This document shows, in pieces, positions 34,382 to 35,941 of a stretch of 35,941 nucleotides of DNA (positions are counted from its first letter, which is position 1; every line of letters starts with the position of its first letter). The stretch is from the NCBI GenBank assembly GCA_046861395.1, contig JBHHUC010000019.1:1-35941 (forward strand). The letters run 5' to 3'. A program made the position numbers and the translations under genes. Origin of the DNA: Fidelibacterota bacterium (GTDB lineage Bacteria > Fidelibacterota > Marinisomatia > Marinisomatales > JABMOV01). The notes below the pieces were generated by a model. That model was not told the origin of the DNA, ran no database searches, and saw only the letters and a program-made list of their open reading frames with translations.

Positions 34382-34887
34382 TTCCTGTCAATTTACAGTG
34401 GTTCCTATCAATTCGAAAAAGAATTAGCGATAAAAAATTGATAAAACCACACGCGATCCGGCAGTCGTGTGATAAACAAAGATGTACATGCATTCCTGCA
34501 GTGGTGGCCGTGCCAGGAAGATCAGCAGGCCATAGAGATGCCTGGAGAAGAAAGAGAAGTGATAAAATCAAAAGATGGTTATTATTCATTTTGACCCCCT
34601 GTCTAACGCGGGCACATAATACTATTTTTTAAGAACAACAATTTCAGGATGAAAAGACGAACCAAATGGTATCAGTGTTGCCTGGATAATTTTCGTTATA
34701 CTCCCACTTTGGAGTGGATTGACCGTGTCAATCCATTCAGTAATATGGTTGGTGGAGTCCATGGCCATTAATACGGTTAATGGAGTCCATAGCAGTGTAT
34801 TATTGGTAATCCGCGAATACGTACTGCAGGTTGTGAACCCCCGCCACTTGTCAAGCACGTAGAGGTTTGAAGTGGACCCCAAAAACT

Positions 34888-34915
34888 ACCTGCCCATCGT
34901 AGGAACGTAGATGGG
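34888..34915 (+). repeat. Short hairpin insert 1 (inside the IS3 left terminal repeat)
   Basis: ACCTG + CCCATC-N11-GATGGG separates AAAAACT from GGACAG; boundaries inferred. Confidence 0.6.
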
Positions 34916-34966
34916 GACAGTGGCTTAGTGTAAATTCTGCTTATTCCAAAATCAAAAGGAATAGCA

Positions 34967-34996
34967 CCTGCCTGCCGGAGCCTTGGCGCAGGCAGG
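34967..34996 (+). repeat. Short hairpin insert 2 (between the orfA SD and start codon)
   Basis: CCTGCCTGC-CGGAGCCTTGGC-GCAGGCAGG, perfect 9-bp stem, 30 nt. Confidence 0.8.
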
Positions 34997-34999
34997 GAA

Positions 35000-35335
35000 A
35001 TGAGTAAGAAAAGACGAAACCATTCAGCCGCATTTAAAGCCAAAGTAGCCCTGGATGCTATCAAAGGTGATAAAACCTTGAGTGAATTGGCTACTCAGTA
35101 TTCACTTCATCCCAACCAAATCCAACAATGCCTGCCTGTCGTAATGACAATGCAGACAGGGAAGAAGAAATTGTTGGAAGGTTCAAAAGATATATTCGGT
35201 TCTTCCGAAAAAGTGCGTAAGGATACCGAATCTGAGATCAAAGAACTCCATGCTAAAATTGGTCAGCTTCCCGATGGGTCGGGAGAACGGGATTTTTTAG
35301 CCACCTGTCCCTTCGGGAAAGCGTTTGGTCGTTAA
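35000..35335 (+). CDS. IS3 transposase OrfA (HTH), carrying three in-frame insertions
   Basis: RRNHSAAFKAKVALDAIKGDKTLSELATQYSLHPNQIQQ, ELHAKIGQL, ERDFLA...KAFGR*; 111 aa, 93 aa after removing the inferred inserts. Confidence 0.9.
   Translation: MSKKRRNHSAAFKAKVALDAIKGDKTLSELATQYSLHPNQIQQCLPVVMTMQTGKKKLLEGSKDIFGSSEKVRKDTESEIKELHAKIGQLPDGSGERDFLATCPFGKAFGR
35131..35160 (+). repeat. Short hairpin insert 3 (splits the Trp codon of the OrfA HTH)
   Basis: CCTGCCTG-TCGTAATGACAATG-CAGACAGG, 7/8-bp stem, 30 nt; removal gives CAA CAA TGG AAG AAG (QQWKK). Confidence 0.85.
35269..35284 (+). repeat. Short hairpin insert 4 (orfA leucine-zipper region)
   Basis: TCCCGA-TGGG-TCGGGA perfect 6-bp stem; gives GQL-PDGSG-ERDFL where IS3 OrfA usually has two residues. 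Confidence 0.65.
35293..35299 (+). other. -1 ribosomal frameshift heptamer joining orfA and orfB
   Basis: T_TTT_TTA is in the orfA register (GAT TTT TTA); the -1 frame is open from here into orfB. Confidence 0.65.
35303..35318 (+). repeat. Short hairpin insert 5 (just after the slippery site)
   Basis: ACCTG-TCCC-TTC-GGGA; removing 15 nt gives ERDFLA-KAFGR*. Confidence 0.75.
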
Positions 35336-35941
35336 GCCTGGAGGAACGCAGAACCATGATACTAGACGATCAAACACTCCCCAAGACGACCAAGTGTGAT
35401 TTGCTATCTGTCAACCGATCCAGTCTGTATTATCATCCCACAAGTAGTTCTCCTGATCCTGAGGAACAAACACTCTGTTTTCTCTTGGACAAATTGCACA
35501 TGAAGTATCCCTGGATGGGGAGTCGCAGTTTACGGGACCAGATAAATCGTAGTGATGAAATAGATATCATTGTCAATCGTAAACGTATTCAACGGTTAAT
35601 GAGGATGATGGGGATTCATTCCACGGCACCAAAACCCAATACCAGTCAACCGGGTAACCAGCATAAGATCTTTCCATATCTTCTCAGGAACGTTACGATT
35701 GATCATCCGAACCAGGTTTGGTGTACCGATATCACATACGTCCCGATGGCCAAAGGATTCCTCTATCTGGTGGCCATTATGGATTGGCATAGCCGTAAGG
35801 TATTAAGTTGGCGGCTATCCAATAGTCTGGACACAGCATTCTGCATTGATGCATTACAGGAAGCATTGGTCAAATACGGAAATCCGGAAATCTTCAATAC
35901 GGATCAAGGTGCTCAGTTTACCAGTGAGGATTTCACCAGCA
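35332..35941 (+). CDS. IS3 transposase OrfB (integrase-core/DDE), 3'-truncated by the window; not in the ORF track
   Basis: LSLEERRTM...CDLLSVNRSSLYY...MGSR...NRKRIQRLMRMMGI...YLLR...PNQVWCTDITY...YLVAIMDWHSRKVLSW...PEIFNTDQGAQFTS; no stop to the window end; ATG 35356 has a GGAGGA SD. Confidence 0.93.

Follow-up and report, generated by a model that had tools for sequence, protein, structure and literature searches.

Short GC-rich hairpins in the left end of an IS3-family element of a Fidelibacterota genome are probably copies of dispersed palindrome families

The DNA analysed here, referred to as the window, is the entire 35,941-nucleotide contig C25 (47.6% GC) of a Fidelibacterota genome, G000, which comprises 2.37 Mb in 136 contigs, has 48.3% GC, and is 94% complete. 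The window ends in the left part of an insertion sequence (IS) of the IS3 family, and this part contains five short hairpin inserts, W1 to W5, at sites S1 to S5. The hairpins landed in an already complete IS3 element, one event per site, with no target duplication, and the same positions have been hit again by other elements in independent copies of the IS. The five hairpins are probably copies of several families of miniature (15 to 30 nucleotides) GC-rich palindromes, similar in kind to the repetitive extragenic palindromic (REP) and SRM repeats, that are dispersed in the phylum; a 20-nucleotide core is also viral. Numbers with the prefix G denote other genomes, L fetched loci, and P OrfA homologue proteins.

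The five inserts are listed below, with ^ marking an insertion point or junction here and throughout.

34888..34914, plus strand: W1, a 27-nucleotide insert ACCTG + CCCATC-GTAGGAACGTA-GATGG in the left inverted repeat, between AAAAACT and GGACAG, at T^GGACAG; absent from all aligned relatives.
34967..34996, plus strand: W2, a 30-nucleotide palindrome-bounded element between the Shine-Dalgarno sequence and the ATG; absent from relatives.
35131..35160, plus strand: W3, 30 nucleotides with a 1-nucleotide ambiguity, within the Trp44 codon (T^GG), replacing W by C plus 10 residues; absent from relatives.
35269..35284, plus strand: W4, a 16-nucleotide hairpin TCCCGA-TGGG-TCGGGA in place of about 6 to 7 native bases, changing TM to PDGSG.
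35303..35317, plus strand: W5, a 15-nucleotide insert ACCTG + TCCC-TTC-GGG(A), three bases 3' of the TTTTTTA heptamer; absent from relatives.

An initial annotation of this DNA had described five GC-rich hairpins, and the alignments give five window-only blocks at its positions, nearly base-exact. Four of the five begin with CCTG[CT]C on the plus strand, again as annotated, and no target duplication was found at any of the five, in agreement with the same source. Its description of the surrounding IS as AT-rich is not borne out, since the window and the genome do not differ unusually in GC content. The DNA folding energies of W1 to W5 are -5.0, -9.7, -5.5, -5.5, and -2.0 kcal/mol, respectively, so the W5 hairpin is weak. 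The size changes in orfA are +30 (W3), +9 (W4), and +15 (W5) nucleotides, and the frame is kept, as had been noted. W4 is a replacement, with 15 to 16 bases standing for 6 to 7 native ones. Deleting the inserts gives back the family consensus and a 93-residue OrfA, as predicted, with the exception of W4, where the best single 9-nucleotide deletion leaves 4 mismatches and no clean restoration of the native sequence. No further insert was found in the visible 585 nucleotides of orfB in the 17-sequence alignment described below, and no hairpin of the W1 to W5 types occurs elsewhere on the contig, which matches the earlier inspection by eye. An Rfam search over 34500-35941, with E up to 1, returned no match.

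Loci with relatives of OrfA were fetched from reference genomes (79) and metagenomes (80). Among the 120 best homologues listed from a large protein collection, 108 have an OrfA of 93 amino acids, compared with 111 in the window, and the match length is 279 nucleotides in nearly all fetched loci. Gaps of more than one residue among the 79 genome loci occur only in the window and in L009. None of the 80 metagenome loci, which do not include the contig of P0114 (see below), carries the inserts of the window. The closest DNA relatives aligned with the window were L081, L080, L001, and L002-L004, and the 17-sequence DNA alignment consists of the window and 16 full-length relatives of 1268-1290 nucleotides. 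The IS relatives closest to the element lie in Neomarinimicrobiota metagenome-assembled genomes (MAGs). One relative, P0002, has an OrfA 94% identical to that of the window without any insert.

Population data were taken as Logan contigs, not raw reads, from four runs (X1-X4) of one hydrothermal-vent sample. The sampled material is probably the source of the window's assembly, so the Logan assembly is independent and the biology is the same. Each of W1 to W5 is spanned by Logan contigs without differences. Empty alleles exist in the same sample: CCAAAAACT^GGACAG at S1, GGAATTGCA^GAAATG at S2, and CAGCTT^ACCATGGAACGG at S4. The variant with the empty S4 reads TTAGCC^AACCTG at S5. The empty S2 allele fixes the length of W2 at exactly 30 nucleotides. 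Variants of the IS with and without individual hairpins thus stand side by side in one sample, and one further variant has an S2 element with a different loop.

The reading of the hairpins as native regulatory structures of the IS lineage, or as an assembly artefact, is extremely improbable. It can point to P0114, a protein from another data set that shares W3. P0114 has LPVVTTVQT at the W3 site of OrfA, which is the exact translation of the W3 consensus, and the window reads LPVVMTMQT, two transitions from that consensus; W3 being common to both, at least one insert has been inherited within a sub-lineage. Against native structures stand the 94%-identical OrfA and the empty alleles, and against an artefact the exact match of contigs from four runs to every insert and the origin of L009 and P0114 in other assemblies. 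The hairpins had been proposed to be genuine secondary insertions into a mobile element, and their absence from relatives together with the empty alleles confirms it.

A BLAST search of the IS against genomes of the phylum gave many 30-35-nucleotide matches to W2 or W3 alone. Twenty of these matches, from 18 other genomes, were fetched for comparison. Ten W3-like copies have 1-5 differences from W3, ten W2-like copies have 3-4 differences from W2, and the flanks are unrelated in both sets. W2 and W3 are members of conserved 30-nucleotide families with arms CCTGCCTG...CAGRCAGG. They can be described as the arms of a 20-mer with about ten extra central bases. Genome G303 contains many of these 20-nucleotide palindromes, CCTGCCTG(C/A)CG(G/T)CAGGCAGG, as well as longer variants, and 19 of 32 hairpin rows in this genome lie outside any open frame of at least 100 amino acids.

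One relative of W1, found in G242, shares its ACC(T/A)G leader and its GTAGG(A/T)ACGTAG loop. The stem of this relative is CCCGCC/GGCGGG compared with CCCATC/GATGGG in W1, a difference of two compensatory pairs. Counting the one in the window, G000 contains the W4 16-mer three times without a mismatch. The other two copies take the place of the D-loop in tandem pseudo-tRNA-Lys genes, which stand upstream of the genuine tRNA-Lys(UUU) gene; the bases on either side of these copies, GTAGCT and GTAGAG, belong to the tRNA D-arm. W4-type hairpins number 15 in G000 against 3 in the control and are partly tRNA-derived. W5 is too short to be traced to a family.

The pseudo-tRNA-Lys tandems of G000 are at C7:39330-39589 and C109:1-330, and their anticodon loop carries an insert CCGCCTGCG...CGGCAGG.

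The motif CCTGCC-N8-30-GGCAGG was counted in 401 genomes of the phylum, with the motif read backwards as a control. It was matched in 266 of them. The counts (motif/control) are 88/2 in G303, 71/1 in G115, 55/5 in G099, 42/2 in G242, and 42/4 in G021. The 20-mer is also present in viral DNA, with 42 copies in 40 IMG/VR viral loci. Some of these copies lie inside a tRNA gene, in the D-arm (L318) or the variable loop (L284, L310). The exact W3 consensus gave 0 matches in viral contigs.

The viral 20-nucleotide palindrome CCTGCCTGCCGGCAGGCAGG often stands between direct repeats of 7-14 nucleotides or in short tandem arrays (L285, L292, L302, L309, position 301-320). One IMG/VR record of 29.5 kb has at least six copies of the 20-nucleotide palindrome.

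These distributions alter two parts of the initial annotation. It had something in the genome writing diverse tiny hairpins; W2, W3, and W4 instead copy pre-existing dispersed families, and W1 has a structured relative. It had also placed the process on mobile DNA, and the families are found between genes, in pseudo-tRNA genes, and on viral contigs as well.

An origin of the hairpins in place, by template switching or quasi-palindrome errors during replication, has points in its favour at two sites. W4 is a replacement whose edges show microhomology (AGCT at the left edge, G at the right), in the IS and in a pseudo-tRNA copy, and the 5' arm of W1 pairs in part with the native GGACAG. This origin is nevertheless very unlikely. 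Unrelated contexts and genomes contain copies almost identical to W2, W3, and W4, donor copies were found (W4 in G000, the W2 and W3 families across genomes), and neither arm repeats the flanking IS sequence in reverse. If the template switched onto another copy of the element, that would be a way for the element to spread and not a competing origin.

Repeated use of the same positions is seen in L009, a truncated and decayed remnant of the IS beside gltX in another MAG. It contains an 18-nucleotide hairpin exactly at S1 and a 19-nucleotide hairpin exactly at S3, with sequences unlike W1 and W3. A sixth site was identified in the sample.

35339/35340, plus strand: S6, the sixth insertion site, in an IS variant, at T^GGAGGAA; loose end ...ACCTGCCCGACAGTCAGGCGG^GGAGGAAC in runs X2, X3, and X4.

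Written as ...CAGTCAGGCGG^GGAGGAAC, this hairpin junction lies at 35340. The window, L009, and the sample variants together show hits at six positions in this IS lineage, and S1, S3, and S6 share T^GGA. TGGA occurs 10 times in 972 nucleotides, and the binomial probability that three of six sites fall on it is about 2e-5, for a motif that was chosen post hoc. The 3' flank of the 20 dispersed 30-mer copies begins with GA or GG in 11 and with T in 8. At the protein level, OrfA has extra residues at or near S5 in several homologues: three residues (AIRQLADGR) in P0009, P0028, and P0062, and five (KAFGSPRPGR) in P0010 and P0016, the latter after KAFG and three residues beyond S5. Among the 16 full-length IS relatives, one (L081) has a comparable insert, of 33 nucleotides, in orfB with CCGTC...GACGG arms.

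The features of the host IS are as follows.

34868..35941, plus strand: IS3-family element, from its left end to the end of the contig (by domains and alignment with full-length relatives); about the first 1070 nucleotides, with the right end off the contig.
35000..35335, plus strand: orfA, 111 amino acids against the usual 93, with W3, W4, and W5 in frame.
35293..35299, plus strand: TTTTTTA heptamer, the likely -1 frameshift site; invariant in relatives, with W4 and W5 on either side.
35321..35349, plus strand: conserved stem GCGTTY...GAACGC, 3' of the heptamer; invariant columns in relatives, with S6 in its loop.
35356..35940, plus strand: orfB, integrase core, open at its 3' end; insert-free in the visible part.

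The left terminus at 34868 begins with TG, and Logan contigs with other flanks split from the window exactly at this position. The domain matches are rve (2.4e-22) and HTH_21 for orfB and a weak HTH_Tnp_1 for orfA. The element has the features of the IS3 family, namely an orfA with a helix-turn-helix (HTH), an orfB with a DDE integrase core in the -1 frame, and the TG end. No second copy of this IS was found in G000 by blastn. The heptamer at 35293-35299 we take to be the slippery site, from knowledge of the IS3 family. From 35257 on, the -1 (orfB) frame runs through W4 and W5 without a stop, and the orfA frame is likewise open. Insert lengths divisible by three may reflect the 30-nucleotide unit size together with selection for open orfA and -1 frames.

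W1 interrupts the left inverted repeat, W2 forms a 9-bp stem in the spacer between the Shine-Dalgarno sequence and the ATG, and W3 takes out the conserved Trp of the HTH. Most likely the inserts attenuate or retune this copy of the IS, and this would be a side effect and not the purpose of a dedicated system. The opposite reading, in which a host mechanism silences the IS by writing hairpins into its critical sites, draws on the placement of all five inserts at sensitive places (the inverted repeat, the Shine-Dalgarno spacer, the HTH Trp, and both sides of the heptamer), on the repeated hits at the same sites in independent copies, and on the presence of 2 of the 10 CCTGCC...GGCAGG matches of G000 in this 470-nucleotide stretch. 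We consider dedicated silencing highly improbable, because the same elements lie mostly outside IS (in intergenic DNA, pseudo-tRNAs, and viral contigs), because the insert in L081 is the only comparable one in the 16 full-length relatives, and because both frames stay open, which is not what silencing needs. No IS-recognising component is evident.

Among described systems, two are close to the hairpin families. The first are the Ssn proteins, single-domain GIY-YIG nucleases of single-stranded DNA (ssDNA) with NTS/SRM hairpin repeats, including dRS3 of Neisseria (Chenal et al. 2025, PMC11893778). Many-copy inverted repeats of 20-50 nucleotides surround a small single-domain GIY-YIG gene in those systems, to which the W4-type hairpins at some mini GIY-YIG genes here may correspond; the repeat-gene-repeat architecture of Ssn loci is called IS-like by the authors (PMC11893778). 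The dRS3 core, ATTCCC-N8-GGGAAT (in the form TTCCC-N8-GGGAA), resembles cTTCCC-GATGGGTC-GGGAg of W4, and some CCTG-type copies in G303 have a GTCATTC leader like that of the NTS CGTCATTC (PMC11893778). Three differences separate the two sets. The nuclease genes here stand beside tRNA genes and pseudo-tRNA debris. The arms of the CCTG type depart from the published SRM pattern, and the few copies checked by hand against HGTCWY... do not fit it. Inserts in coding sequence and in an IS stand out here, whereas NTS are reported to lie within genes only rarely (2%) (PMC11893778). In a 2026 preprint, Ssn loci serve only as a benchmark.

The second system is REP, with BIME and REPIN. According to Di Nocera et al. 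(2013, PMC3733652), these are likewise dispersed palindromes of 20-40 nucleotides with several clustering families per genome, some of them wholly inside open reading frames. A precedent for site reuse is given there, where different REPs are found at about the same recB site of two Xanthomonas species, and two REP superfamilies are defined by a GTAG or CGTC end tag (PMC3733652). REP and Ssn/SRM repeats both being described (PMC3733652, PMC11893778), the proposal of an undescribed kind is not supported; the likeness to REP/RAYT single-strand substrates and the mention of GIY-YIG in the initial annotation were good leads. A literature search on palindromic repeats of the phylum gave no paper naming the phylum among its 12 top results, and for GIY-YIG hairpins the Ssn paper was the only relevant match; within this scope nothing on these particular families came up, with the qualification that the supplementary lists of PMC3733652 and PMC11893778 might hold relatives.

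In a rival explanation, the hairpins are classical REP elements, and the transposase moving them is a tyrosine (Y1/HUH) enzyme associated with REP (RAYT). Y1_Tnp (PF01797) is present in 116 of the 199 genomes of the phylum that are at least 90% complete, with counts of 5, 7, 12, and 13 in hairpin-rich genomes. Over 197 genomes, the hairpin excess correlates with the Y1 count (rho 0.48), the GIY-YIG count, and genome size. RAYT-like genes of about 190 amino acids in G303 and G115 have hairpins on both sides, one RAYT-like gene has a CCTGCC hairpin 288 nucleotides upstream, and the W1 loop contains GTAG twice. In spite of this, we regard movement by RAYT as unlikely. G000 has 0 Y1_Tnp matches and no RAYT was found in it, and G181, with 39 hairpins, has no Y1 match. 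The hairpins beside the RAYT-like genes of the relatives belong to a CGTC-tagged family (CCGTCACAGA...) and are not of the CCTG type, which was found within 300 nucleotides of just 2 of 22 Y1 loci in relatives. W2, W3, and W5 have no GTAG or CGTC end tag, W1 has GTAG only in its loop, and W4 is untagged in the IS. With GIY-YIG count and genome size controlled, the partial correlation of Y1 with the hairpin excess falls to 0.11; the converse value for GIY-YIG, with size and Y1 controlled, is 0.27. For lack of tags and of a RAYT partner the elements are not filed as REPs. Ssn-like cassettes are a better, though incomplete, fit than REP/RAYT.

The hairpins flanking the RAYT-like genes have the sequences CCGTCACAGA...TCTGTGACGG and CCGTCAGTGA...TCACTGACGG. 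They lie at 1410-1441, 1577-1609, 2208-2237, and 2293-2327 of L186 (G303:C113:1-4000) and at 1088-1115, 2213-2244, and 2288-2316 of L193 (G115:C3:61500-65000). Both loci are candidates for a CGTC-tagged REPtron. According to Di Nocera et al. (2013, PMC3733652), no tyrosine transposase with flanking CGTC units was known.

In place of RAYT, a mini single-domain GIY-YIG nuclease can be considered. G000 has seven mini GIY-YIG matches, in frames of 65-110 amino acids (for example, open reading frames of 81 and 87 amino acids), in addition to UvrC.

C4:219-425, C66:113-325, C31:1898-2107, C1:155-358, C68:3493-3702, C68:3955-4080, C77:131-337: mini GIY-YIG matches in G000.

Four of the seven genes directly adjoin a tRNA gene (Met, Gly, Ser, and Ser). 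Two of the seven are arranged in tandem, as a cassette in which 38-nucleotide hairpins recur. A TCCCGA..TCGGGA hairpin lies within 170 nucleotides of five of the seven. Across 23 mini GIY-YIG loci of five genomes, YCCCGA..TCGGGR hairpins are present at 11 and a tRNA gene within 900 nucleotides at 17. Two of the nine mini GIY-YIG genes of G303 have a CCTG-type hairpin within 100 nucleotides, where about 0.1 is expected, and in G099 a W3-like core, CTGTCG-CTA-CGACAG, stands about 85-100 nucleotides upstream of a GIY-YIG gene. The initial annotation had suggested looking for RAYT/Y1, GIY-YIG, or reverse-transcriptase genes flanked by the same hairpins. For the W4 type this is so at five of the seven mini GIY-YIG genes of G000; the CCTG type is rare at such genes, and G000 has no Y1. 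NCBIfam gave nothing above cut-off for two of the mini GIY-YIG proteins.

The elements may multiply in the form of folded single strands. The copy-in would be started by a nuclease and depend on replication or repair, and the enzyme would act in trans. An Ssn-like mini GIY-YIG nuclease, encoded beside tRNA genes and flanked by W4-type hairpins, is a tentative candidate for this enzyme, and a Y1/RAYT transposase is a less probable one. The stronger proposition is that the CCTG-led and TCCCGA-type micro-hairpins are actively mobile, site-selective ssDNA elements copied in trans by these tRNA-associated nucleases; we hold it to be doubtful. If true, Ssn/SRM systems would be a transposition-like machinery writing hairpins of 15-30 nucleotides into genes. 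The inverted repeat, the ribosome-binding spacer, and the frameshift site, as control points of the IS, would then be preferred or selected landing sites that retune it.

Several results weigh against the account of dispersed, enzyme-copied families given here. In G000 itself the CCTG type is near chance, with 65 occurrences of CCTGC..GCAGG against 49 expected and 10 of the bounded pattern against 6 in the backwards control. In the same genome, CCTGCC was observed 715 times against 792 expected, and an unbiased ranking of hairpin arms showed no CCTG signal. The initial annotation had named a chance rate of the motif as grounds for abandoning the idea; the rate is that low in G000 for the CCTG type, and far from it in relatives of the same order (88 against 2). 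Because of the low rate in G000, the IS may have acquired W1 to W3 in another host. All five inserts fall within the first 470 of about 1070 visible nucleotides. The viral 20-mer flanks start with GA or GG in just 7 of 84 cases, so a single universal target is unlikely. CCTG-type hairpins are near just three of the 23 mini GIY-YIG loci, plus one by coordinates. The correlations are only suggestive, being based on hand-transcribed counts and related genomes. G180 has 28 hairpins and only 2 GIY-YIG matches, and G181 has 7 GIY-YIG matches for its 39 hairpins. Five viral records with the 20-mer encode neither GIY-YIG nor Y1. The nearest solved relatives of the mini GIY-YIG proteins are the UPF0213 structures 1ywl and 1zg2 (E about 5e-8). 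The enzyme that moves the hairpins is a candidate only, and the available text of PMC3733652 and PMC11893778 contains no demonstration of the mechanism by which REP or SRM repeats move.

Two further groups of small repeats can be compared. Rickettsia palindromic elements (RPE) stand in frame in genes that stay open (PMC3733652), which is a likeness of behaviour and not of membership. Sequence, length class, and host lineage differ from those of the present hairpins. RPE are several-fold longer, at about 100-150 nucleotides, and we know of no link between them and an IS. The SDR repeats of heterocystous cyanobacteria, reportedly described by Elhai et al. in Genome Res in 2008, are said to be about 21-27 nucleotides long, to spread by a mechanism that is not known, and to nest in other mobile elements. 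Their sequences differ from those of the hairpins here, and they belong to a different phylum.

Filled and empty versions of one site are seldom available, and for this reason it is still open how REP and SRM micro-palindromes multiply. This IS lineage offers at least eight events whose junctions are known to the base and lack a target duplication, together with repeated use of positions by different elements and presence/absence variants within a sample. Its main value is this set of exact filled and empty junctions, with a candidate target logo (insertion 5' of GGA) and a candidate enzyme. It is also a natural case in which a transposase has hairpins at its start of translation and at its frameshift site, and it extends REP/SRM-type element families to an uncultured marine phylum.

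Three other origins of the inserts were considered and set aside. Footprints of the excision of a hairpin-forming transposon do not apply, as the arms do not repeat the flanking sequence. Translational bypass elements or removal at the RNA level are not needed, as the frames are open. The inserts are not integron attC sites, as they have no R' / R'' boxes.

Two minor observations concern orfB. At window position 35465, the contigs of runs X1-X4 all depart from the window sequence with one common loose end, so another variant of the IS, or a copy with a rearrangement, is common in the sample. The metagenome contig L092 has a 103-nucleotide tandem duplication in the orfB of a related IS (alignment columns 987-1090), bounded by TCTGCCTGGAGG, and also contains a separate 19-nucleotide GC-rich insert.

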